64,000 nucleotides of DNA from Coriobacteriales bacterium. Lineage in GTDB: Bacteria; Actinomycetota; Coriobacteriia; Coriobacteriales; UBA8131. Positions 1,777-61,539 of this stretch are shown here, piece by piece. The DNA is taken from assembly GCA_031277035.1 (NCBI GenBank), contig JAISLY010000025.1, positions 32,068-96,067 of the forward strand, read 5' to 3'. The position numbers were made by a program, and so were the translations under genes. Position 1 is the stretch's first letter. Each line of letters begins with the position of its first letter. The notes under the pieces are model-generated. The model saw only the letters and a list, made by a program, of their open reading frames with translations, was not told the origin of the DNA and did not search any database.

Positions 1777-3396
1777 TTGGTATCACGTACTATGGGAGTG
1801 TTCGGTGCCAGTTTGCACGCACCGTGGAGGAAGACGGTGGATACACGACTGCACAAATGGGCATGGTTGAGGCCTGCTGGTGGAGGCCTTATCTGGGCAC
1901 TCTTTTTCATCTGCATGTTCAACTACCCGCTTTTTGGCTTTACCAATCCGTCCTCTCAGGCCAATAATCCTTTTAACATGGGCTTCATCATTACCTTGGC
2001 CCTTGCTCTGATTGCCCTCGGTTTTTGTATTGCCGCGCCCGCCGTGCGCAAACATTTGAACAAACGTCGTCTCCTGCCAGCTATGGCCATGCTGAGTTTG
2101 ATCGTCGGTATCGTTGCTGCGGCAACCTTTAACGCAACGGGTGCCGTTGAATATCCTTCCTATATCGCCACGGGGTTTGTGGCCGGCTGCGGGCTGGCAG
2201 TCTTTCTGGTCTATTGGTTCTATGATTTCAGCACTTTGAAAGCTTCGATGATTGCCCTGCTTATTCCTCTGGATTTTCTCCTGAGCGCACTCATCACGAT
2301 AGGGACTCTGATGCTGCCCCGACCTTTTGCTGTCGCCATCATCATCTTGACAGTCTGCGTGGTCTTCCTCTGCATCGTAAGCTACAGACCGCCCTCCATA
2401 CCCCAAGGCCAACCTTCTCAACCGCAAGCTGCTTCGAAAAGAGAGCGTCTCAGGGGCTTCTTTGCCGCGATCCGACGTACCGATCGGTTTGGGGATTTTG
2501 TTTCTTACACCGTCTGCACTATCATCCTGTCTGTCGTTTATACCCTTGTCGGTCAGGTGGCCATATCGGCGTCCATGACCTACTCGGCCTTGAATCTGAT
2601 AACAATTGCCGATATGAGTGGCGCAGCAGTGGTGGCATTGATTATCAGGTCCATTACCAAGATTAATCTCTCACAAATCTACAAGGCTATCTTTATCGTG
2701 CTCTCCACGGCCCTGTTTTTCCTGCCTTTTTTGGGTGAGAGCTACTGGATCGTTACCAATAATCTCGTGGTCTTTGCCTACTATCTGTTCTTCATGCGTC
2801 TGATTGTTCTGTTAGCCCAGGAATTCAACGGCTTTGGACACTACGGCGTTACCCTCTTTGCACTGGTAAGCGGCCTGGGTTTTGCCTTTACTCTGGCGGG
2901 CGTCATTGCCGGTACCATACTAGCTGCCTCGGGGGGATTTGGCATCATACGTCTCTCAACAGTGGCTTTTGTCTGCGTTTATATCATGTCTATGGCCCTG
3001 GTTTCTTTCGCCAACAAAAAGGGTAGAGGCGTTGATTTGGAAAACGATGAGACTAGTTGGGATGAGACCAAGTTGGCGGTACGCGATGATGTGGTGCGCA
3101 TACAGCAACGCGCGAAACACTCGATAGAGCAGCCGCTCTGGTCGCTTTCAGATGATGCGCTCAACTCCTTATGTGATGCCTTCGCTCACCGCTACCAACT
3201 GACCCGGCGTGAACGCGAAATGCTTCCCTTCATCATCAAGGGCAAGACTTCTACCGAGATATCCGAGACTCTGTTCCTGGCTACCAGCACCGTTAAGGGC
3301 CATGTGTACGGGCTCTATCAAAAGTGTACGGTGCATTCCAGGCAGGAGTTGCTGAGTCTTCTGGAGCACGACAGAATAATCTCTACTGAGATATGA
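1777..3396 (+). CDS. Membrane-embedded LuxR-family transcriptional regulator (multi-TM N-terminus, C-terminal HTH)
   Basis: Many hydrophobic helices, then the C-terminal LuxR HTH REREMLPFIIKGKTSTEISETLFLATSTVKGHVYGLYQKC. Divergent from the flavoprotein gene. The true start may be downstream of 1777. Confidence 0.8.
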   Translation: MVSRTMGVFGASLHAPWRKTVDTRLHKWAWLRPAGGGLIWALFFICMFNYPLFGFTNPSSQANNPFNMGFIITLALALIALGFCIAAPAVRKHLNKRRLLPAMAMLSLIVGIVAAATFNATGAVEYPSYIATGFVAGCGLAVFLVYWFYDFSTLKASMIALLIPLDFLLSALITIGTLMLPRPFAVAIIILTVCVVFLCIVSYRPPSIPQGQPSQPQAASKRERLRGFFAAIRRTDRFGDFVSYTVCTIILSVVYTLVGQVAISASMTYSALNLITIADMSGAAVVALIIRSITKINLSQIYKAIFIVLSTALFFLPFLGESYWIVTNNLVVFAYYLFFMRLIVLLAQEFNGFGHYGVTLFALVSGLGFAFTLAGVIAGTILAASGGFGIIRLSTVAFVCVYIMSMALVSFANKKGRGVDLENDETSWDETKLAVRDDVVRIQQRAKHSIEQPLWSLSDDALNSLCDAFAHRYQLTRREREMLPFIIKGKTSTEISETLFLATSTVKGHVYGLYQKCTVHSRQELLSLLEHDRIISTEI

Positions 3397-3406
3397 GCGG
3401 TCAAAA

Positions 3407-3455
3407 GGCGACAGAAGGTGACAAGGGGGACGGTTCCATTTTGTCATCTTTTTGC
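3407..3455. repeat. REP-like repeat, inverted copy, left flank of the Y1 transposase gene
   Basis: ggcgacagaaggtgacaagggggacggttccattttgtcatctttttgc is the near-exact reverse complement of the repeat at 4371..4429. Confidence 0.75.
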
Positions 3456-3522: not shown

Positions 3523-4293
3523 CTACCGGCGGCATTTCGCGATGATGCCGCGCGAGATGCCGGTCGCTCTCTCTATCTGGCGGATGGAAAAACCCTTGTC
3601 CCGCAGCAGACAAAGCAGGCGGTCGCGCTCCTTTTTGTCGGCAATCCCTACGAGTGCCACAGGCGCGGTGTCGCCAAGGGCTGCCTTGATTCCCGATAAC
3701 ACCTCGGCATCCGTCCTCAGCTTGCCTTCGGAGGGCATGCGCTCCGCACCGTCGAACACCTGGTGAAACGCACGAAACTCCGCAATCGCCTTCTTGTGGT
3801 CATCGGAGAACATGTCCAGCACCAGGCTCGTCTCCAAAAGCGCGTCGTTGCCCTTGAGGTAGCCGCGGTAGCTGCTCCAGCGGTATGCTCTGGCGTCCTT
3901 CGCGATGCCCGCCACCACGGGGTTTTGGTGGATATAGCGCACCACGGCAAGCAGGTAACGATCCCTGTCAACAGATTCGCTCTTGTAGCGGTTTGCCACC
4001 AGCGCGCCGCTGCGGGCGTATTTACGATTAAACCATCCGGCGTACTGGACAAGAACCCTGTGCATGAGTGCGCTGACGTTGCCAGGCGTGCCCTCGTGTA
4101 CCAGCAGGTGGACGTGGTTTCCCATCAGGCAGTAGGCATAGACGTCAAAGGGGACGGCGTCTTTTGTTGCAAAAAGCAGGTCGAGGAACTTCCTGTAGTC
4201 CGCATCCTCCTCAAACAGGTGACAGTGGTTCACCCCACGAAAGACGATATGGTAGATACCTGACGCACTGATCTGACGGGCGACCCTGGTCAT
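3523..4293 (-). CDS. Y1 (IS200/IS605-type, RAYT-like) transposase with C-terminal HTH-like tail
   Basis: IYHIVFRGVNHCHLF and YCLMGNHVHLLV (HUH-type motif), and RYIHQNP (catalytic Tyr region). The gene is flanked by inverted REP-like repeats. Confidence 0.8.
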   Translation of the reverse strand: MTRVARQISASGIYHIVFRGVNHCHLFEEDADYRKFLDLLFATKDAVPFDVYAYCLMGNHVHLLVHEGTPGNVSALMHRVLVQYAGWFNRKYARSGALVANRYKSESVDRDRYLLAVVRYIHQNPVVAGIAKDARAYRWSSYRGYLKGNDALLETSLVLDMFSDDHKKAIAEFRAFHQVFDGAERMPSEGKLRTDAEVLSGIKAALGDTAPVALVGIADKKERDRLLCLLRDKGFSIRQIERATGISRGIIAKCRR

Positions 4294-4363
4294 CTGTCAT
4301 CAACTCCTTCTTGTGCGGACATCATGCGGATAATCGCAGCAATACGGTTTTGGACAGTATAGT

Positions 4364-4429
4364 CGATAGCGCAAAAGTTGACAAAATGGAACCGTCCCCT
4401 TTGTCACCTTATGTCACCCCTTGTCAGCT
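4364..4429. repeat. REP-containing 66-bp repeat, copy 1 (right flank of the transposase, left flank of the TA cassette)
   Basis: cgatagcgcaaaagttgacaaaatggaaccgtcccctttgtcaccttatgtcaccccttgtcagct. It recurs at 5223..5289 with 2 mismatches. Confidence 0.85.
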
Positions 4430-4439
4430 ATCCACATCC

Positions 4440-4763
4440 TTACTCATCGCTGGTGGGGCGGTGGTGCTTCAGGATGCCGATTATGTTGCGTGAGCCGTGG
4501 AGGATGCGGTAGATAAAAACGGTTTGCTGCTCGTCGTCGACCTGATAGAAAATCAGGTAATCGTCAACGACCGCCCGGCGGTATCTGGCGTCATGTTCAT
4601 ATGGCGGGGCACCGTAAGGGTTCTCGGCAAGGCTTTTGCACCGTGCCTTCAGTGCATCGATGATTTTCTTTTGGTAGCTGTCTGAGAAACGCCTGTTGAA
4701 CTCCTGTATTTCTGTCACATCGGCCAATGCGACCTCAAGATAGCGGAGTTTGTAGGGTTCCAC
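4440..4763 (-). CDS. Type II toxin, RelE/ParE family
   Basis: 107 aa ending YLIFYQVDDEQQTVFIYRILHGSRN. Lies 7 nt downstream of the antitoxin gene. Confidence 0.8.
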   Translation of the reverse strand: MEPYKLRYLEVALADVTEIQEFNRRFSDSYQKKIIDALKARCKSLAENPYGAPPYEHDARYRRAVVDDYLIFYQVDDEQQTVFIYRILHGSRNIIGILKHHRPTSDE

Positions 4764-4769
4764 ACGGCC

Positions 4770-5039
4770 TCACGCACCAGTTGAAGCCCAGAACTCATCG
4801 TGTGAGAGCCACTTCGCATCCGGGCCCTCGGCAAGCCGCTCGCCCTCGGCGAGGCGCTCCCGCACGTACCGGAGGTGGAGGTACTCCTCATACCCCTTGA
4901 AGTCCTCAAAGTTGATGAGCACCGCCTGACCCTTGCCCCTGTTGGTGATAATCACGCTGTCGCGCTCCTCAAGTCGTTTGACGACGGCGGCATAGTTGTT
5001 CCTGAGTTCGCGGGAGGGGATGACTTCGGCGTTCATCAT
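4770..5039 (-). CDS. Type II antitoxin, Phd/YefM family
   Basis: MMNAEVIPSRELRNNYAAVVKRLEERDSVIITNRGKGQAVLINFEDF. AAAGGAG RBS upstream of ATG 5039. The longer track ORF starting at 5141 is unlikely. Confidence 0.8.
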   Translation of the reverse strand: MMNAEVIPSRELRNNYAAVVKRLEERDSVIITNRGKGQAVLINFEDFKGYEEYLHLRYVRERLAEGERLAEGPDAKWLSHDEFWASTGA

Positions 5040-5222
5040 GGGGCGCTCCTTTTGTTGCAAGGGCATCGCTGAGGTTTGCGTGACAATCCGACAGCAGTGT
5101 ATCACAGTTTGCCTACATGGGTGAACAGGGTCTGCCCGCATGAGCCCGCATGAGCTAAACGCAGCTTGACTGGCTGCGGCCCAACTGCTGCAAGTTTACA
5201 TCGAAATCACAGGTCGGGTAGC

Positions 5223-5289
5223 CGATACCGCAAAAGTTGACAAAATGGAACCGTCCCCTTTGTCACCTTATGTCACCCTTTGTCAGCTT
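5223..5289. repeat. REP-containing 66-bp repeat, copy 2
   Basis: Direct repeat of 4364..4429. It overlaps the stop codon of the adhesin gene. Confidence 0.85.
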
Positions 5290-28772: not shown

Positions 28773-29699
28773 TTACTCCAGCGCGGCGCGTATGGGGGAA
28801 AGCCAGGCAGAAAGATCGGCGGCAGCCGTGGCGGGCGAAGCGCCGATGCGTTGCACGATGGCGCTGCCGATGATCACCCCGTCGCACAGCGCAGCCAGCT
28901 CACGGGCCTGCTTGGGCGTATGCACGCCAAACCCAACGGCAATCGGCACGTCACTGACCGCCCGCACCGCCGCGATAATCGGCCTGAGATCGGTCGTGAT
29001 ACTCTCGCGCACGCCCGTGACGCCCAGCGAGGAGACCAGATAGAGAAAGCCGCGCGCCTCGCGGGCTATTCTGGCAACCCGCGCTTCGGAGGTCGGCGCG
29101 AGCATGGAGATCAGCTCAAGGCCATGCGCACGCACAAAGGGCTCCATCTCCCCCTTCTCCTCAAAGGGCAGATCCGGGACGATAATGCCATCGACCCCCG
29201 CCTGCTCACAGTCTGCAAAAAAGGCTTCGTAGCCGTAGTGAAAGACCGGGTTGAGATAGGTCATGAAGACCAGGGGCAGCTGGGTACGCGCACGCAGACG
29301 CCGCGCCAGCGCGATGCAGTCGCCTATCGTTGTGCCCGATGCCAGCGCGCGCAGACTGGCCTGCTGGATGATAGGCCCCTCGGCAATGGGGTCGGAGAAG
29401 GGGATGCCAATCTCGATAAGATCGACGCCGGCCTTCTCCAGAGCGGCTACATATTCCTCGGTACGCGCAAGCGAGGGGTCGCCCGCCGTGAGAAAGGCAA
29501 TGAGCGCCTTGTGCTCGGCAAAGGCGCCCGCTATTCGAGAAGATGCTGGTGTGACGGGGGCGCCGGGGGCGCCTGGTGTGCCCGTTGCGCCTGGTGTGCC
29601 TGGTGTGCCTGGTGTGCCTGGTGTGTCCGTTGCGCCTGGGGCGTCTGGTGTGCCTGGTGCGCCTGGTGTGCCTGGTGTGCCGTTTGCCACACTACTCAT
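28773..29699 (-). CDS. trpA: Tryptophan synthase alpha chain with a roughly 45-aa G/T/P-rich N-terminal extension
   Basis: [27 protein letters not shown] and [13 protein letters not shown] 29699 overlaps the trpB stop. Confidence 0.9.
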
Positions 29700-30876
29700 G
29701 AATGCTCCTTCCCCGATAGCGGGCAATCGCCGCCACATCCTTATCACCGCGTCCGCTCAGACAGATGATGACGCTCGTATCCTTGGGCAGACGAGGGACA
29801 AGCGTCAGCGCGTGGGCAAGCGCGTGGGCACTCTCGATGGCGCAGATGATGCCCTCGCTGTGCGCCAGATATTCAAAGGCACACACCGCCTCCTCGTCAG
29901 TGATTGGCACGTACTCGGCTCGGCCGCTTTGGTGCAGCCAGGCGTGTTCGGGGCCGATGCCCGGATAGTCGAGCCCAGCGGAGATGGAGTAAACCGGGGC
30001 AATCTGGCCGTCCGCATCCTGACAGAAGTAGGACTTCATGCCATGAAAGACCCCCTCTGCGCCCGTTGCGATGGTGGCGGCGTGCTGCCCTGTCTCGATG
30101 CCCCGCCCGGCCGCTTCACAGCCGATGAGACGCACGTCCGCATCGGGGATGAAGTGATAAAAGCTGCCGATGGCGTTGCTCCCACCGCCGACGCAGGCGA
30201 GCACCGCGGCGGGCAGGCAGCCTTCGCACGCAAGAATCTGCGCACGCGCCTCGGCGCTGATGACCGCCTGAAAGTCGCGCACCATCGTCGGAAAGGGATG
30301 CGGCCCCATCACCGATCCAAGCACGTAATGCGTATCGTCCACACGGCTTACCCATTCGCGCATGGCTTCGTTCACCGCGTCCTTCAGGGTTGCGGTGCCG
30401 CTGGTCACCGTGTGGACCTTCGCGCCGAGCAGCTCCATGCGATAGACGTTGAGCGCCTGGCGCTCGGTGTCCTCACGACCCATGAAGACCTCACACTCAA
30501 GGCCGAGCAGAGCCGCCGCCGTTGCCGCCGCAACACCGTGCTGACCAGCGCCCGTCTCGGCGATGACGCGTGTCTTGTTGCGTCGTTTTGCGAGCAGGGC
30601 CTGTCCCAGCACGTTGTTAATCTTATGCGAGCCCGTGTGGTTGAGGTCCTCACGTTTGAGATACACCTTCGCGCCACCGAGCTCACGCGTCATTTTCTCG
30701 GCAAAATAAAGCAGCGAGGGCCGGTTGGCATAGGTGTTGAACAGGGTGGTGAGCTCTGCCTGGAAGTCGGGGTCGCGCTTTGACGCCTCATAGGCGGCCT
30801 CCAGCGCATACAGTTCGCTCATCAGGGTCTCAGGGATATACTGGCCCCCAAAGTCTCCGAAGCGTCCTTTTGTCAT
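29692..30876 (-). CDS. trpB: Tryptophan synthase beta chain
   Basis: [29 protein letters not shown] and GGGSNAIG. Confidence 0.95.
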
Positions 30877-31643
30877 GCCTGCCTCACTCTCTTTACCAGC
30901 TCGTTTATCTTCTGCGAATCCTTCACGCCGTCCGTCTCGGCCCCGCTGCTCACGTCGATGCAGTACGGCTTCAGTTCCAGCGCCTCCTCGATGTTTCCAA
31001 GCCCGATGCCACCCGCAAGAAAATAGGGGCGTCGGATGCCCGCAAGACAGCTCCAGTCAAAAGTTCGCCCGCTCCCCGGTTCGCGATAGTCGAACAGCGG
31101 GTAGTCGACCTCGTCGGCAATGTGGAGAAGGTCAGTTGACAAAGGGGACGGTTGAGTTGACAAAGGGGACGGTTGCGTCTGAGGGCGGCTGCGAGTTGAC
31201 AAAGGGGACGGTTCCAAATTGTCAACTTTTTCCAGATGCTTTGCGACTCCATGACCGCACTCAAAAAGTTGACAATTTGGAACCGTCCCCTTTGTCAACT
31301 CAACCGCCACGGCTCGGATGATGGTCAGGTTCGCTCCGCAGCGCTGCCTGAGTTCGCCTATCTGCTCAGGCTGCCAGGCGCCGTGTAGCTGCGCCGCCGC
31401 AAAGAGTCCCCGGTCGTAGAGTTCGGCGATGCGCTCAGGAGCCTCCTCAACAAAGACGCCCACCGACACGATGCGCTCGTCAAGCTGTGCCCGCAGCGAA
31501 GCGGCGTGCTCGGGCGTCACGCGGCGTGTGCTGGGGGCAAAGACAAAGCCCACGTAGTCTGGCAAGGCCCGGTTGACCGCCGCGACATCCGCCTCGCGAA
31601 AAATCCCGCATATCTTGATGCGCGTCGTATGCGTCGTGCTCAT
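30873..31643 (-). CDS. trpF: Phosphoribosylanthranilate isomerase, carrying an in-frame REP-like insertion
   Basis: [24 protein letters not shown] and [11 protein letters not shown]. Operon position between trpC and trpB. Residues [17 protein letters not shown]...PSPLSTD come from the repeat element. Confidence 0.85.
31135..31300. mobile_element. REP/MITE-like palindromic element inside trpF
   Basis: Three gttgacaaaggggacgg motifs, then the long inverted arms gttgacaaaggggacggttccaaattgtcaacttttt / aaaaagttgacaatttggaaccgtcccctttgtcaac around a 31-bp core. It has the same core motif as the repeats flanking the Y1 transposase. Confidence 0.8.
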
Positions 31644-32542
31644 CGGCTGGCCTCACGCATCTGGGCAAGCAGGGCGTCGCGGTTCTTTGAGCGCATCAGC
31701 GTCTCACCAATGAGCACCGCGTCAACTCCGGCGCGGGCGAGCAGCGCCACATCATCAGCGGTGCGGATGCCGCTCTCCGCGACATAGAGCACATCGCCTG
31801 GCACCACCTCGCGCAGCCTGACACTCAGCGACAGGTCGACTTCAAAGCTGTGAAGGTCGCGATTGTTCACGCCCACAATGCCCGCACCCGCAGCAAGCGC
31901 ACGCTCAAGCTCCTCCCTGGTGTGCGCCTCCACAAGCGCGTCCATGCCCAGGCTGTGGGCGCAGGCGATAAAGGCCGCCAGCTGCTCGTCGCTGAGCAGA
32001 GCAACGATGAGCAGCACCGCCGCCGCCCCGAGCGAGGCCGCCTCGTGTATCTGGTACGCGTCGATGATGAAGTCCTTGCGCAGCGCCGGTATGCGCAGCG
32101 CCGCCGCAATTTCGGCGAGATAGCGCGGTGCACCCTGAAAGAAGTTGGGCTCGGTGAGCACACTGATGGCGGCAGCGCCTGCCTCCTCGTAGGAGCGGGC
32201 GATGCCGAGATGGTCAAAGTCCTCGGCGATAATGCCCTTGGATGGCGATGCCTTCTTTACCTCGCAGATGAAGGACAGCTCCGGCGCGGCAAGAGCCGCG
32301 GCAAAAGGCCGCAAAGCAGGCGGTTGAGTTGACAAAGGGGACGGTTGCGTCTGAGGGCGGCTGCGAGTTGACAAAGGGGACGGGTACAAATTGTCAACTT
32401 TTTGAGTGCGGTCATGGAGTCGCAAAGCATCTGGAAAAAGTTGACAATTTGGAACCGTCCCCTTTGTCAACTCGCCCGCCTGCTTTGCGGCCTCAACACG
32501 ACGATAGGTATCGGCTACTATCTTCTCCAGGATGCTGTGCAT
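31640..32542 (-). CDS. trpC: Indole-3-glycerol-phosphate synthase, carrying an in-frame REP-like insertion near the N-terminus
   Basis: FICEVKKASPSKGII, ISVLTEPNFFQG, LRKDFIID and GVNNRDL. Residues [17 protein letters not shown]...PSPLSTQP come from the repeat element. Confidence 0.85.
   Translation of the reverse strand: MHSILEKIVADTYRRVEAAKQAGELTKGTVPNCQLFPDALRLHDRTQKVDNLYPSPLSTRSRPQTQPSPLSTQPPALRPFAAALAAPELSFICEVKKASPSKGIIAEDFDHLGIARSYEEAGAAAISVLTEPNFFQGAPRYLAEIAAALRIPALRKDFIIDAYQIHEAASLGAAAVLLIVALLSDEQLAAFIACAHSLGMDALVEAHTREELERALAAGAGIVGVNNRDLHSFEVDLSLSVRLREVVPGDVLYVAESGIRTADDVALLARAGVDAVLIGETLMRSKNRDALLAQMREASR
32321..32471. mobile_element. REP/MITE-like palindromic element inside trpC
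   Basis: Near-identical to 31135..31300 except for one fewer leading motif and an inverted 31-bp core. Confidence 0.8.
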
Positions 32543-32557
32543 GAACCTGCTCCGTCC

Positions 32558-33565
32558 TCACTCGTTTGACAGTGCGATAAAGCGCTCGAGCTGCGCCAGG
32601 GCAGCCCCGCTGTCCAGTTGCTCGGCGGCGATTGCGGCTGCCTCCATCAGACTCAACTCCGGCCGGGCAACAAAGATGGCCGCTGCCGAGTTCATCACCA
32701 CGGCGTTGCGCTTTGCACCCTGCTCACCGCTCAGGATAGCGCGGGTGATGGCGGCGTTCTCCTCGGGTGTTCCCCCCACCAACTCCGATTTGGCACAGCG
32801 CGCAAAGCCAAAATCCTCTGGGTGAATATCGTAACTCTTAAAGCGTCCATCGCGCACCTCGCACACGCTCGTCGCGGCGCTCATCGAAAGTTCATCCAGA
32901 CCATCCTGCCCGTAGACGACCAGCGCGTCGCGCACCCCAAGCTTACTGAGCACCTGCGCAAGCGGCTCAACCAAATCCTCCTCGTAGACGCCAAGCAACT
33001 CACGGTTCGCGCCGGCCGGGTTTACCAGGGGCCCAAGGATGTTAAAGATTGTGCGGATGCCAAGTTCGCGACGCACGGGCGCAACATACTTCATGGCGAT
33101 GTGATAGTTCTGCGCGAAAAGGAAGCAGAGTTTGATGGAGCGCAGCAGCTCCAGGCTTTTCTCCGGAGACACCGTGATGTCCACGCCGAGGGCCTCCAGC
33201 ACGTCCGCTGCGCCGGAAAGCGAGGTCGCGGCGCGATTGCCGTGTTTGGCAACCGGGATGCCCGCCGCGCTGATAACGAGGGCCGAGGTTGTGGAGATGT
33301 TAAAGGAGTGCGCCTCATCACCACCGGTGCCAACAATCTCAAGCACATCCATGTCATGCAGCAGACGGATACAATGCGAGCGCATGCCCGCCGCCGAGCC
33401 GGTTATCTCGTCGATGGTCTCGCCTTTGACCGCCATCGCTGTCAGATAGGCCGCCATCTGGATGTCGCTTGCCTCACCGCTCATGATCTCGTCCATCACC
33501 TGCTCAGCCAGGTCGTAGCCGATGTCCTCGCGGTTTATCGCCTTTCTCAACGCCTCGGTTATCAT
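32558..33565 (-). CDS. trpD: Anthranilate phosphoribosyltransferase
   Basis: VGTGGDEAHSFNISTTSALV, KHGNRAATS and FNILGPLVNPA. Confidence 0.9.
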   Translation of the reverse strand: MITEALRKAINREDIGYDLAEQVMDEIMSGEASDIQMAAYLTAMAVKGETIDEITGSAAGMRSHCIRLLHDMDVLEIVGTGGDEAHSFNISTTSALVISAAGIPVAKHGNRAATSLSGAADVLEALGVDITVSPEKSLELLRSIKLCFLFAQNYHIAMKYVAPVRRELGIRTIFNILGPLVNPAGANRELLGVYEEDLVEPLAQVLSKLGVRDALVVYGQDGLDELSMSAATSVCEVRDGRFKSYDIHPEDFGFARCAKSELVGGTPEENAAITRAILSGEQGAKRNAVVMNSAAAIFVARPELSLMEAAAIAAEQLDSGAALAQLERFIALSNE

Positions 33566-34173
33566 TGCTGACCTCCCTGTTCGCTTGCTCCTGAAACCTC
33601 TGTAAGGCTCAGGAAGTTGCCCATTATCTTCTTTCCCTGTGGGGTGAGTATCGATTCAGGATGAAACTGCAGGCCAAAGACCGCAAAACTGCGATGCTCA
33701 ACGGCCATCACCTCGCCGGTGGCCGTTTGAGCGGTAACGCGCAGCTCGTGGGGTATGGTCGCGGGGTCGGCCACCAGGGAGTGGTAGCGTGCGCCCTCCA
33801 GCTGCCCCTGTGGGCTCAGGCCCGCAAAGAGTCGTGCGTCTGGCTCGAGCAGCATGGTCGAGGCCTTACCGTGCATCAGGCGCTCGGCGTAGACAATCCG
33901 TGCGCCAAAGGCCTGGCAGATGGCCTGATGTCCAAGGCATACCCCGAGCAGGGCAATGCGTCCGGAGAAGGCCCTGATGACCTCGGGGCACACACCCGCG
34001 TCCTCCGGACGCCCCGGGCCGGGTGAGAGAATGATATGCGTGGGCGCAAGCGCGTCAATCTCCTCCAGCCCTATCGCATCGTTTCGCACCACGCGGATGT
34101 CTGGCTCAAAGGTGCCCAGCATCTGGTAGAGGTTATAGGTAAAGCTGTCGTAGTTGTCAATGATGAGAATCAC
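33562..34173 (-). CDS. trpG: Anthranilate synthase component II (glutamine amidotransferase)
   Basis: ILIIDNYDSFTYNLYQ, GVCLGHQAI and QFHPES. The GTG start overlaps the trpE stop (GTGA). Confidence 0.9.
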   Translation of the reverse strand: MILIIDNYDSFTYNLYQMLGTFEPDIRVVRNDAIGLEEIDALAPTHIILSPGPGRPEDAGVCPEVIRAFSGRIALLGVCLGHQAICQAFGARIVYAERLMHGKASTMLLEPDARLFAGLSPQGQLEGARYHSLVADPATIPHELRVTAQTATGEVMAVEHRSFAVFGLQFHPESILTPQGKKIMGNFLSLTEVSGASEQGGQQ

Positions 34174-35912
34174 GCGGCACCGCCCTTCGCGCCCGTGCCC
34201 ACTCCCGCCGCGCCCTTCGCGCCACTCTCGCCGACCGCACCAGCGCCCGCACCAGCGCCCGCGCCTGCGGTCGCCACTCCCGCCGCGCCCTTCGCGCCCG
34301 CGCCCGTGCCCACTCCCGCCACACCCTTCGCGCCACTCTCGCCGACCGCACCAGCGCCCGGCACATCCTCCGCACCATCTTCAAGAGCCGCGAGCACCGC
34401 GGCCATCTTATCGCGACATTCCTGATATTCGCGTGCCGGCACGCTGTCGGCCACAATACCGGCACCGCTGCGTATGAAGAGGCGGCCCTCCTTCTTAAAG
34501 GCGAGGCGGATGGCGATGCAGGTGTCGAGGTTGCCGTTAAAGGCCAGGTAGCCAACCGCACCACCGTAAACGCCGCGCTTGCTGCCCTCAAGTTCGTTGA
34601 TAATCTCGCAGGCGCGCAGCTTGGGGGCACCGGAAAGCGTACCCGCCGGGAGAATCGCATCGATGACCTCGCTCGGCGAAACCTCGGGGCGCAGGGCGCC
34701 GCGCACGGTCGAGCCGATGTGCATGACGTGCGAGAAGCGCAGCACCGTGCGATACTCCTCAAGCTCCACACTGCCAAAACGCGCGACCTTGCCCACATCG
34801 TTACGGCCCAGATCAACGAGCATGTTGTGCTCGGCGAGCTCCTTCTCATCAGCGAGAAGCTCAGCTTCAAGAGCCGCGTCCTCTTCAGGCGTCGTGCCAC
34901 GGGGGCGAGTGCCCGCCAGAGGGTAGGTAAAAACATCGCCGTCGATGACCTTCACGAGTGTCTCGGGCGACGCACCGGCCAGCTCGATGTCATCGCTGGC
35001 GAAGTAGAAGAGATACGGCGAGGGGTTGATGCGCCGCAGCCTCTCGTAGGTGCCAAAGAGGCTGCCCGTGGCCGGAGCGGAAAGACGGTTTGAGAGCACG
35101 ACCTGGAATATATCACCCTCGTGGATGTAGTGTTTTGCGCGTTGGACCATACGAGCATAGCGAGCCTCGTCAAACAACGCTTCAAAGGGGCCCTCCCGGC
35201 ACAGGGGGGGAAAGTCGGCCTTCTTTCCTGTGGCAAGGAGCCGGGCAAGGGAGCGGAGCTCATGGGTGGCCTTCTCGTAATTCTCCTCAAACGTGTCGGT
35301 GCGCACCGTGGCGATGAGCAGGATGCGACGTTGATGGTGGTCAAAGGCTATAACCTTGTCAAAGAGCATCAGGTCAAAGTCCTTAAAGCCCTCCTCGTCC
35401 GCATCGGCAAAGCGCAGGCTTGGTTCACAATAGCTGAGATAGTCGTAGGAAAAGTAGCCCACCAGCCCGCCGGTAAAGGGGGGCAGTTCGGTCAGCCGAG
35501 GGCAGCGATACTCCTCGAGGATGCCGTCGATAAAGCTGCCCGGCTCACGGGTGGCAACTTCGAACTGCGTGCCGTTTTTGATCTGTAGACGCCCGTTCTG
35601 ACAGCTGATTTCGGCTGTCGGGTCAAAGCCGATAAAGGTGTAGCGCCCCCATCGGTCGGGGTCCTCCCGGCTCTCCAGAATAAAGCAGTGCCTGCTCAGA
35701 CGCTTGAGGACTGCGAATAGTTCGAGCGGATCGCGGCCCTGGCCCGGAAGAATCGCGTAGACGGGCATTGAGGCAAAGCCGCGAGCCAGAAGCTTTGCGG
35801 TCGCAAGGCTTGGGTGGCAGGTGACGCTTCGGTGCTCCGCAGACGGCGAGGCGTCTGGTGCCGCAGCTGATGCGGCAGGGAGCCGTGGGTCTTGTTGTGC
35901 GGTCTGATCCAT
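34170..35912 (-). CDS. trpE: Anthranilate synthase component I with a roughly 65-aa G/A-rich C-terminal extension
   Basis: GGLVGYFSYD, LAGTRPRG, MHIGSTV, GTLSGAPK and GGAVGY. GAAGGGGAAG RBS before ATG 35912. The longer track ORF to 36011 would overlap the leader terminator. Confidence 0.9.
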   Translation of the reverse strand: MDQTAQQDPRLPAASAAAPDASPSAEHRSVTCHPSLATAKLLARGFASMPVYAILPGQGRDPLELFAVLKRLSRHCFILESREDPDRWGRYTFIGFDPTAEISCQNGRLQIKNGTQFEVATREPGSFIDGILEEYRCPRLTELPPFTGGLVGYFSYDYLSYCEPSLRFADADEEGFKDFDLMLFDKVIAFDHHQRRILLIATVRTDTFEENYEKATHELRSLARLLATGKKADFPPLCREGPFEALFDEARYARMVQRAKHYIHEGDIFQVVLSNRLSAPATGSLFGTYERLRRINPSPYLFYFASDDIELAGASPETLVKVIDGDVFTYPLAGTRPRGTTPEEDAALEAELLADEKELAEHNMLVDLGRNDVGKVARFGSVELEEYRTVLRFSHVMHIGSTVRGALRPEVSPSEVIDAILPAGTLSGAPKLRACEIINELEGSKRGVYGGAVGYLAFNGNLDTCIAIRLAFKKEGRLFIRSGAGIVADSVPAREYQECRDKMAAVLAALEDGAEDVPGAGAVGESGAKGVAGVGTGAGAKGAAGVATAGAGAGAGAGAVGESGAKGAAGVGTGAKGGAA

Positions 35913-35924
35913 GCGTTTCTTCCC

Positions 35925-36286
35925 CTTCTCGGACTCTCTTTTGGGCCAGAGGGGATAAAAAACCGCCCCTGGCGTCTTTGCCAAGGACGGATGGAAAATC
36001 CGCGGTGCCACCTTGATTCGGGCATCTTACGCCCGCTCTTCATGGAGTACGGTCATACTCCCGACCGGTAACGTCGATCCTACGTCGTCAGCTACTCGTT
36101 TGTTTTCTTCGACACGTGCCCCGGCAATCACGTCACCAGCTTGGGTCGAAACTGAAAACTCCCTTTCACCACGCCCTCCGTGGCCCATTTAGCAGACTGC
36201 ATACTGCCGGATTCTCAACACCCCGGCTCTCTGTAAGCGCATCTCCTGCTTTTATTCCCACATCAACGGTTTAAGATATTCGGTTA
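35925..36286 (-). ncRNA. T-box leader (probable tRNA-Trp specifier) upstream of trpE
   Basis: Minus strand has the Stem I elements CAGAGAGCCGGGGUGUUGAGAAUCCGGC, a candidate specifier region CUAAAUGGGCC containing UGG, the T-box sequence AAUCAAGGUGGCACCGCGG (36000-36018), and then the terminator. Confidence 0.7.
35957..35990 (-). terminator. Intrinsic terminator of the trp leader
   Basis: Minus-strand RNA reads CCGUCCUUGG-CAAAGACG-CCAGGGGCGG-UUUUUU, a 10-bp stem with two G-U pairs. It overlaps the region 3' of the T-box sequence. Confidence 0.7.
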
Positions 36287-36323: not shown

Positions 36324-36552
36324 ATCGAGATTGTCGGCGCCGAGGCAATGCGCCGAGGCAAAGGTCGGGCTGGGGCGCAGCACGAAAGCCTCATCATCGT
36401 CCCTGATGAGGCTTTCGTGGATCGTGCTGACAGGTGCCAATCTTTCCCGGTCTTTTCCGACCCTTCCTGGCCTTTCCAGGTCTGTCCCGGCCCTTCCCGA
36501 CCCTTCCTGGCCTTCCCGGGTCTCTCCTGGACTTTCCCTGGGCACTGACTCC

Positions 36553-60533: not shown

Positions 60534-61271
60534 ATTCGCAAAACCGACATCCGCGACGCTTGCGACGCCCCGAGTCCCGATCAGGAGCGAGATGCTTCGA
60601 GTCTCGGTCAGGAAGAGTATATTCCGCGCTCTGAGCAAAAACGCCTTGAGGCCCTCTACGCCGAACAGGAAGCCGCCGGCATCGACGCCTTTGTCATCGG
60701 TGTCGATGAAGTAGGGCGCGGTTCGGTGGCCGGCCCGCTGACCGTCGGCGCCGTCTGCCTGCCGCTCCGCCCACAGATTGCGTGGCTCAACGACTCCAAA
60801 AAACTCTCCGCAAAGCGCCGCGAGGAGCTTGACTTGCGGATACGTGCAAGCGCCCTGGCGCTGGAAATCGCCCATATTCCCCCTGAGGACATCGATCGCG
60901 ACGGAATGGCCGCCTCGCTCAAAAAGGCGATGCGCGCCGCTCTTGACGCCTGCTGTGCCGCCCGGTGTCTTGAGCCCGATCTTGTGCTGATCGACGGCAT
61001 ACCGCTTGGCGTCCATCCAAAGGAGCGAAGTGTCGTCAAAGGCGATGCCCGGGTTGCCTGTATCGCCGCCGCGTCCATCGTCGCAAAGGTTGCCCGCGAC
61101 GCCCTGATGCGTGAGGCGGACGCGTCGTTTCCGGGCTATGGCTTCGCTTCGAACAAAGGCTACGCCTCCAGACAACACATTGCCGCCATACGCGAAAAGG
61201 GTCTGACGACCTTTCACCGTGCCAGTTTTTGTCGAGGATTTTTCCAGGAGCAAATCACCTTCGACTGCTGA
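60534..61271 (+). CDS. rnhB: Ribonuclease HII (start codon unresolved, see findings)
   Basis: The catalytic motif IGVDEVGRGSVAGPL is encoded at about 60696-60740, upstream of the GTG (60726) used by the ORF track. DSKKLS and PGYGFASNKGYAS follow later. 60534 is a candidate ATT start. Confidence 0.75.
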   Translation: MRKTDIRDACDAPSPDQERDASSLGQEEYIPRSEQKRLEALYAEQEAAGIDAFVIGVDEVGRGSVAGPLTVGAVCLPLRPQIAWLNDSKKLSAKRREELDLRIRASALALEIAHIPPEDIDRDGMAASLKKAMRAALDACCAARCLEPDLVLIDGIPLGVHPKERSVVKGDARVACIAAASIVAKVARDALMREADASFPGYGFASNKGYASRQHIAAIREKGLTTFHRASFCRGFFQEQITFDC

Positions 61272-61272
61272 G

Positions 61273-61425
61273 GGTTCAGATTGCGGTTCGCATCCATTCG
61301 GCTGCGGTTCGGATTCCGTTCAGAATCCGTTCGGCTGCGGTTCGGCAATTGCTCAACATCCGTTCGACTGCGGTTCGGATTCCGTTCAGCACCCGTTCGG
61401 CTGTGGTTCGGGTCGCGGTCAGAGC
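61273..61425. repeat. Intergenic tandem repeat, about four 33-bp units in two alternating subtypes
   Basis: tccattcggctgcggttcggattccgttcagaa / tccgttcggctgcggttcggcaattgctcaaca / tccgttcgactgcggttcggattccgttcagcac / ccgttcggctgtggttcgggtcgcggtcagagc. Confidence 0.8.
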
Positions 61426-61539
61426 CTGCTTGACTGTGCGTCAGGGAACAGTCGGATGCGGGCACAGATTGGGTAAGAATCGGGTAAGGATCGTCTGCCA
61501 CACTGGTCTTCTCGCACCAACAGGAGCAAGGGAGACGAG

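Follow-up and report, generated by a model that had tools for sequence, protein, structure and literature searches.

In-frame REPIN-like elements in two adjacent tryptophan biosynthesis genes of a Coriobacteriales genome and their likeness to the repeats flanking a Y1 transposase

Two palindromic elements lie inside the adjacent tryptophan biosynthesis genes trpF and trpC in the 64,000-nucleotide stretch of contig JAISLY010000025.1 analyzed here (hereafter the window), which comes from a metagenome-assembled genome (MAG) of an uncultured gut bacterium recorded as 'Coriobacteriales bacterium'; the contig is 112,687 bp long. They are built from a repetitive extragenic palindromic (REP) motif that also flanks a Y1 transposase on the same contig, an enzyme that resembles REP-associated tyrosine transposases (RAYTs). 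Both elements are read through in frame and add 56 residues to their host proteins. We think it probable that they are REPIN-like elements (REPINs being pairs of inverted REPs that form one long hairpin) of the family served by this transposase, located at loops that tolerate insertion and filtered by the reading frame.

Structure of the two elements

The relation between the elements and the transposase rests on the 21-mer GTTGACAAAGGGGACGGTTCC. With up to three mismatches allowed, this sequence has 10 matches in the window compared with 0.00 expected from shuffled sequences, and all of them fall in three places: four in 31135-31299 within trpF, three in 32328-32471 within trpC, and three at the flanks of the transposase and a toxin-antitoxin pair (3417-3437, 4388-4408 and 5247-5267, with one or two mismatches each). 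An earlier note on this DNA had proposed that the elements are copies of the repeat flanking the Y1 transposase, and the match counts support that claim. A relaxed search of the window using a 10-mer core revealed no further convincing site.

In each element, two REP hairpins in inverted orientation enclose a 31-nt loop and so form a doublet, to which extra half-REPs are added. The arms are themselves small hairpins in which GTTGACAA is paired with TTGTCAAC, and the REP has the layout GTTGACAA-AGGGGACGGTTCCA-AATTGTCAAC. On one side only, the doublet is extended by one or two 21-nt half-REPs and the spacer GTCTGAGGGCGGCTGCGA. The composite element in trpF (31134-31301; 168 nt, 56 codons) includes two tandem 21-nt half-REPs, GTTGACAAAGGGGACGGTTGA and GTTGACAAAGGGGACGGTTGC, on the plus strand at 31135-31176, which are seven codons long each and encode a PSPLSTQ repeat. 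Its doublet consists of a left 39-nt arm (31193-31231, plus strand) that is 100% complementary to a right 39-nt arm (31263-31301, minus strand), with the loop at 31232-31262. The composite element in trpC spans 32306-32493, with codons from 32306 to 32473 accounting for the 56 residues. It has outer 41-nt arms (32306-32346 and 32453-32493) that are 95% complementary and, within these, a REP doublet whose 41-nt left arm (32363-32403, plus strand) is 95% complementary to the right arm (32435-32475, minus strand) on the other side of a loop at 32404-32434.

Reverse-complementing the trpF loop gives exactly the trpC loop; in other words, the loop is flipped between the two genes. After the 31-nt loop has been reverse-complemented, the segment common to both elements (31149-31301 and 32321-32473; 153 nt, 51 codons) is identical at 151 of 153 positions. 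This near-identity appears only after that operation and goes beyond what had been described before. The flipped loop also accounts for the finding that the left part of the two copies is a direct repeat (95%) beside a core that is an inverted repeat (98%), and for the differing 11-residue middle peptides of TrpF and TrpC. The predicted folds are strong, at -48.7 kcal/mol (z -14.4) for the trpF DNA and at -91 and -110 kcal/mol (-109.7 for trpC) for the mRNA-sense strands of trpF and trpC, with z scores of -9.7 and -13.2, respectively.

Other kinds of inserted sequence were considered as well. No Rfam family reached its gathering score anywhere in the window, and promoter and terminator scans found no such site inside the elements; a self-splicing intron, a riboswitch or a terminator was dropped on this basis. 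An intein was also discarded, since the 56-residue peptide has no Pfam match beyond the host domains and no relative among 1.84 billion protein representatives.

Reading frame, host genes and placement in the proteins

The trpF and trpC ORFs both remain open through the elements. On each strand one of the three frames of the element is free of stop codons, and that frame is the phase of both host genes; in addition, the element length is a multiple of three in both. The claim that the elements are tolerated in frame thus holds, with only the stop-free frame in use, and the added length, previously put at about 50-55 residues, was measured as 56 residues in each gene. The inserts form a Pro/Ser/Thr-rich 56-residue loop that is probably disordered, and from the sequence we would expect them to be translated and to be neutral. 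A word-index protein search with a 63-residue insert peptide returned no match; the window's own TrpF (P0121) was missed too, so this null result carries no weight.

The host genes are part of a complete trpEGDCFBA operon on the minus strand (28773-36011), in which all seven trp genes are intact. The trpF gene (30873-31643, minus strand; MDR2197029.1) encodes a phosphoribosylanthranilate isomerase of 256 residues including the insert, and its match to Pfam PRAI is broken into two stretches, one on each side of the insert. The trpC gene (31640-32542, minus strand; MDR2197030.1) encodes an indole-3-glycerol-phosphate synthase of 300 residues including the insert, which matches Pfam IGPS with 284 bits over residues 72-292 and NCBIfam TrpC with 318 bits. 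Both genes are called full length by the NCBI Prokaryotic Genome Annotation Pipeline (PGAP), whereas the gene caller of the Joint Genome Institute (JGI) starts TrpC (P0001) after the insert and thereby yields 224 residues in place of the 300 of PGAP. When the inserts are left out, dN/dS between the window and its relatives is 0.08-0.18 for both genes, and TrpC and TrpF keep all family-invariant residues. It follows that trpC and trpF are under purifying selection and are not pseudogenes, which agrees with the earlier note.

In TrpC the insert comes after helix alpha0 (HSILEKIVADTYRRVEAAKQA) and before the RPFAAAL helix, which is followed by strand beta1. In an AlphaFold2 (AF2) model based on 69 homologues, the barrel and helix alpha0 have predicted local distance difference test (pLDDT) scores above 90. 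Residues 23-78 score 46-75 and are mostly coil, with one short predicted helix at 39-43. The model thus shows the TrpC insert as a low-confidence coil in the alpha0-alpha00 linker. For TrpF, alignment to the T. maritima enzyme (1lbm) pairs query residues 7-115 with chain residues 2-107 and query residues 185-253 with chain residues 126-202, and in the alignments to TrpF structures in the PDB, 69 query residues face 18 chain residues at the break (query 115/185). This break would place the TrpF insert in the loop after strand beta5, which we take to be the region where TrpF has no regular helix alpha5. The AF2 coil for TrpC and the PDB sequence alignment for TrpF are both in keeping with the surface loops suggested in the earlier note. 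TrpF orthologs have three to four residues at the site where the window has 56 (for example, AVAVDEGFAPDLL): most Coriobacteriales TrpF sequences read IIRAVAVDEGFAPDLL, and the related locus L069 reads IIRAVTPEASPELL (AVTPEASPELL). Because L069 and most orthologs have nothing inserted here, the trpF element is a true insertion.

The transposase and the distribution of the REP core

The RAYT-like Y1 (HUH) transposase (3523-4293, minus strand; 256 residues) sits 27 kb from the trp copies and matches Pfam Y1_Tnp with 47.6 bits against a cut-off of 23. From its translation, the HUH motif can be read as H60-V61-H62, the candidate catalytic tyrosine is Y120 in RYIHQNP, and the C-terminal tail is helix-turn-helix-like. 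Inverted repeats of 57 nt flank the gene: the left one (3396-3452, plus strand) holds the REP hairpin GGTGACAAGGGGGACGGTTCCATTTTGTCA and the right one (4373-4429, minus strand) is 86% complementary to it. A second copy of the right repeat (5232-5288, minus strand) is found beyond a RelE/Phd toxin-antitoxin pair (4440-4763 and 4770-5141, minus strand). Direct copies at 4360-4429 and 5219-5288, which are 96% identical, bracket this pair, and it looks as though the pair was captured inside a duplicated REP end.

The 19-mer core TGACAAAGGGGACGGTTCC was found at 66 loci (L003-L068) of GTDB representative genomes, a set to which the MAG of the window does not belong. Most of these are plus/minus doublets in rumen Bacteroidales MAGs; the core is also present in Lachnospiraceae and in MAGs of Propionibacteriaceae and Coriobacteriia, the names of the latter two suggesting a termite-gut origin. 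One Bacteroidales MAG (L044; 3513-4615) encodes a transposase that is 36% identical to that of the window and is flanked by the identical 19-mer, which indicates that the motif and the enzyme go together across phyla. An identical 19-nt core beside a 36%-identical enzyme also represents unusually deep conservation of a REP. In the other genomes, none of about 45 doublets of this core lies inside a long ORF. The few intragenic matches that were flagged are isolated motifs, each lacking an inverted partner within 250 nt; among them, L014, L019, L042, L063 and L045 were inspected and have no doublet. The intragenic position in the trp operon is therefore atypical for this REP family.

Signs of turnover at these sites among the relatives

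Samples in JGI's 33000426xx series, together with one NCBI MAG, supplied the best TrpC matches. In the closest relatives (loci L001, L002 and L069), other GGGGACGG palindromes are present at the same trpC junction: L001 has a hairpin with a 24-bp stem (GGAATGGGGACGGTTCATGTGTCC...GGACACATGAACCGTCCCCATTCC), L002 has the hairpin AGACAGGGGACGGGTCCTGTGTCT...AGACACAGGAACCGTCCCCTGTCT, and the L069 contig ends within a further variant (L069:1-125). Its stem sequence sets the window element completely apart from those of L001 and L002; at least one site must thus have received a new variant. In trpF, the corresponding position is occupied by a GGGGACGG palindrome in L002, by the relic of half an element in L001 and, in the more distant L071, by a small TGACACCCGTCCCC palindrome. 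Insertion into previously naive sites, as the earlier note implied, is not what these genomes show, because different palindromes are held at the same sites in L001, L002 and L069 for trpC and in L001, L002 and L071 for trpF. L001 also has a REP-like piece, GGACAGGAACCGTCCCCTGTTGAC, in trpE (760-840), in frame as QEPSPVD, which is not found in TrpE of the window.

Sequence comparison of L001 with L002 provided an estimate of how fast these inserts change. The flanks are 96-98% identical (dS 0.11-0.14) and the trpC inserts 72% (97/135), while the trpF inserts, of 33 nt in L001 and 84 nt in L002, are essentially unalignable. Within the 24-bp stem there are six differences, five of which are double changes that preserve pairing. 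The inserts thus change faster than synonymous sites, yet they stay palindromic and in frame.

In more distant relatives (L070, L077, L078 and L079) the TrpC linkers are long and of low complexity, and a search of these linkers found no palindrome and no GGGGACGG motif, which confines the palindromic state to the sub-clade of the window. The same four keep an ELPLxxL segment that has been lost in this sub-clade. Ortholog alignment bears out a true insertion for trpF, whereas the trpC site is an ancestrally variable linker; the possibility that orthologs carry an unrelated segment at the site, and hence an ancestral linker, applies in part to trpC, given these long and non-palindromic linkers. 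For trpC, the likely course is that a single old event took place before the window, L001, L002 and L069 diverged, and that turnover in situ came afterwards. The pattern at the trpF site suggests repeated hits or variable retention. Two further features of the relatives were observed in the same region. The 570-nt trpC-trpF spacer of L071 (L071:1385-1952) is dense with other short repeats and contains a 34-nt inverted repeat that is 91% complementary. In L070 (L070:1809-1838), the TrpF N-terminus ATKGATKGATK derives from tandem GCGACAAAGGGC, a unit that resembles the REP core GACAAAGGGG.

The trpC element of the window also shows a trace of how its arms were extended. The 17 nt at 32307-32323, read as PPALRP, are the exact reverse complement of 32476-32492, as reported previously, and the two segments are part of the 41-nt outer arm pair. 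The latter segment, GGCCGCAAAGCAGGCGG (minus strand), encodes AAKQAG and is native trpC sequence, because it is kept in L001 and L002 as GCCGCGAAGCAGGCGG, with one mismatch. The inverted 17-mer is not present at the corresponding junction of L001 or L002 and is thus specific to the window. A native template together with a copy that is missing in the relatives indicates that the palindrome arm grew by inverted copying of host sequence. The copy would be the footprint expected of intra-strand template switching at a hairpin, a process known as quasi-palindrome correction. The native flank is also like the REP core at 9 of 16 positions (GCCGCAAAGCAGGCGG versus TTGACAAAGGGGACGG), and this likeness could have favored either targeting or the template switch.

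Origin of the elements

We propose that both elements are non-autonomous REPIN-type copies belonging to the REP family of the RAYT-like Y1 transposase, and the matching flanks suggest that the transposase of this contig may have mobilized them. Selection on an essential operon would act as a filter, such that only in-frame, stop-free copies at permissive loops survive; the stop-free frame alone would be seen because any other would inactivate the operon. Both sites would already have carried older REP-like palindromes in this sub-clade. The 99% identity of the trp copies indicates that the present pair is recent, and it most likely arose by transposase-mediated re-insertion at resident REP relics or, alternatively, by gene conversion between the trpF and trpC sites, which are 1.17 kb apart. 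The flipped loop would be consistent with the opposite strand of this two-fold symmetric element having been used, or with the perfect arms having recombined. Template switching driven by the hairpin would account both for this flip and for the 17 nt of flank copied in inverted form.

Several results weigh against this proposal. A metagenome scan with a 28-mer gave no match to the exact variant, and a scan with the 19-mer GTTGACAAAGGGGACGGTT gave five matches that all lack a hairpin and lie in DNA of different GC content, which marks them as chance matches. A HMMER search of the 56-residue insert against 1.84 billion representatives also returned no match, a result that speaks for cluster representatives only. 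Only two copies other than those at the flanks were seen in the 64-kb window, too few to demonstrate a mobile population. At one or two core positions, and also in the stem, the trp copies depart from the REPs that flank the transposase. The transposase scores 57.2 bits against NCBIfam REP_Tyr_transpos (profile positions 4-146 of 146), below the cut-off of 80 bits, and a sequence search of the PDB found no relative of it. Finally, the TrpF insert was placed by sequence alignment alone, the single-sequence AF2 model having a pLDDT of 36.

A bolder version of the proposal, which we offer tentatively and with more doubt than conviction, is that successive REPIN variants overwrite each other at two long-lived landing pads within essential genes, namely the linker in trpC and the beta5 loop in TrpF. 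The transposase, or hairpin-templated repair, would then keep acting on REP relics within coding sequence. If true, this would explain the fast divergence with palindrome and frame kept, as well as growth by inverted host codons. It would also describe a lineage of selfish elements that persists vertically within proteins, and extending a palindrome would be a way of making new coding sequence out of the antisense of codons already present.

A different explanation is that the palindromes are kept for a function of the operon at the nucleic-acid level, with the peptide as a by-product. Possible roles include mRNA hairpins that set decay, RNase III processing or pausing between trpD, trpC, trpF and trpB, and DNA cruciforms that act on supercoiling. 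The extreme mRNA-sense folds (z -9.7 and -13.2) would suit such a role, as would retention of a palindrome at the trpC junction in four diverged genomes and the five pairing-keeping double changes between L001 and L002 in a sequence that outpaces synonymous sites. However, element replacement or template switching within a hairpin gives symmetry without selection, and the trpF site is empty in L069 and most Coriobacteriales. The more distant trpC linkers are long and not palindromic, the same REP family is extragenic elsewhere, and the elements have no Rfam family and no promoter-like or terminator-like site. We therefore regard a nucleic-acid function as unlikely.

It is also improbable that the elements are ancient, vertically inherited relics whose 99% identity is due to gene conversion alone, the transposase being irrelevant today. 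Such a history would be compatible with the 1.17-kb distance between the copies, the same orientation of their asymmetric left parts, the palindromes that relatives already have at both sites, and the fact that the exact variant was found nowhere else in the metagenome scans or among the 1.84 billion protein representatives. It does not sit well with a core motif that matches the flanks of an intact transposase on the same contig, nor with a stem so unlike those of L001 and L002 that a new variant has to have entered at least one site, and a flipped loop is not a simple product of conversion. An assembly chimera at the repeat, or young trpC and trpF pseudogenes in a tryptophan auxotroph, is largely refuted and in our view very improbable. 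Two copies with different flanks are both in frame with lengths that are a multiple of three, related contigs from other samples carry palindromes at the same junctions, and the seven intact trp genes, the dN/dS of 0.08-0.18 and the full-length PGAP calls argue against decay, even though repeats do break assemblies (the L069 contig ends inside its trpC palindrome) and the JGI caller cut TrpC to 224 residues. Copies of a transposase-associated REP family, filtered by frame at permissive loops, thus remain our preferred explanation.

Comparison with known in-frame palindromic elements

In-frame palindromic elements within proteins are a general phenomenon that has already been published, and the novelty suggested in the earlier note does not extend to the phenomenon itself. 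Di Nocera, De Gregorio and Rocco (2013, BMC Genomics 14:522; PMC3733652) catalogued REPs that lie wholly within ORFs and in frame in several phyla, and a 2024 review of transposable elements of the miniature inverted-repeat type (MITEs) describes in-frame fusions by intragenic MITEs as 'not unusual', with the Rickettsia palindromic elements (RPEs) as the extreme case (PMC10969869). In the part of PMC3733652 considered here, intragenic REPs add 20-82 residues overall and occur as singles, as head-to-head dimers (20-30 residues) and as clusters (43-82 residues). Its authors consider that they may be neutral in linkers or loops, and they tie GTAG REPs to RAYT transposases. The likeness of the GTAG/CGTC REPs to our elements is that short palindromic REPs lie in frame inside known protein genes. 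In the GTAG/CGTC REPs the tag is at the end of the stem-loop, whereas here there is no GTAG, and CGTC is found inside the loop/core (GGAACCGTCCCC) and not at the stem foot. According to the same part of that article, the host genes are mostly replication and repair genes, unlike the two adjacent genes of one biosynthetic operon seen here. The term 'Actinobacteria' is absent from its main text, whereas the host here is a Coriobacteriales MAG, and the turnover at the same sites that we see in relatives is not described in the part of the article considered.

The RPEs (Ogata et al. 2000) are palindromes of approximately 100-150 bp that lie in frame in unrelated metabolic genes, keep an open frame and a conserved peptide, and whose insertion is reported to be compatible with fold and function, as far as the relevant parts of PMC10969869 and PMC3733652 describe them. 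The elements studied here are alike in having a common palindromic segment of 153 nt, in frame, that is part of a 56-residue insert in two genes. In the part of PMC3733652 considered, RPEs are confined to Rickettsia with no dedicated transposase known, and some intragenic R. conorii repeats are equated with RPE-4 and RPE-6. In contrast, an intact Y1 transposase with matching flanks is present on the same contig here. Membership in the RPE families by descent is implausible, because the host belongs to the Coriobacteriales.

A further parallel is with the REPIN-RAYT systems of Pseudomonas and Enterobacteria. A REPIN is composed of two inverted REPs that form a long hairpin, and the Y1 transposase gene is itself flanked by REPs (Bertels and Rainey 2011, PMC3116915). 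REPINs are extragenic, number tens to hundreds per genome beside a single-copy transposase and persist vertically at fixed positions over long times (PMC3116915; bioRxiv 10.1101/2021.07.10.451892). The trp elements share the inverted REP doublets, here with a 31-nt spacer, and the long hairpin (arms 100% and 95% complementary), and the transposase of the contig is likewise flanked by inverted repeats of 57 nt that carry the motif. They differ in that both non-flank copies are intragenic and in that the transposase is extended at its C-terminus and does not reach the NCBIfam cut-off for RAYTs. ERIC and other MITEs (PMC10969869) are also small, non-autonomous palindromes with an open frame and in-frame ORF fusion; classical MITEs, however, are of the terminal-inverted-repeat/DDE type with target-site duplications, whereas here the flank is duplicated in inverted form and no direct target duplication is present.

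A literature search for the motif string matched no paper. What is new here is the host lineage, the cross-phylum REP core, the presence of elements in two adjacent genes of an operon, the turnover at the same sites and the inverted copying of host codons. The results extend in-frame palindromic selfish DNA to a transposase-associated REP family in gut Actinomycetota and to neighboring genes within an essential operon. The four related genomes with different palindromes at the same codon junction provide a natural experiment on the turnover of REP doublets and the creation of peptides, although the finding opens no long-standing question. On the practical side, such elements break assemblies and mislead gene callers, as seen for the end of the L069 contig and the JGI version of TrpC.

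Other repeats in the window

Two other proteins of the operon carry additions of a different kind. TrpA has an N-terminal collagen-like G-T-P repeat, encoded by 9-nt tandem units and matched by Pfam Collagen, and TrpE has a Gly/Ala-rich C-terminal tail. These additions (29528-29708 and 34173-34376, respectively) are in frame, of low complexity and lineage-specific, as they are not present in relatives. Tandem repeats with a 10-nt period were also observed at 36441-36540, about 430 nt upstream of the trpE ORF, and others with an 11-nt period occur near 61.3 kb (61258-61444).

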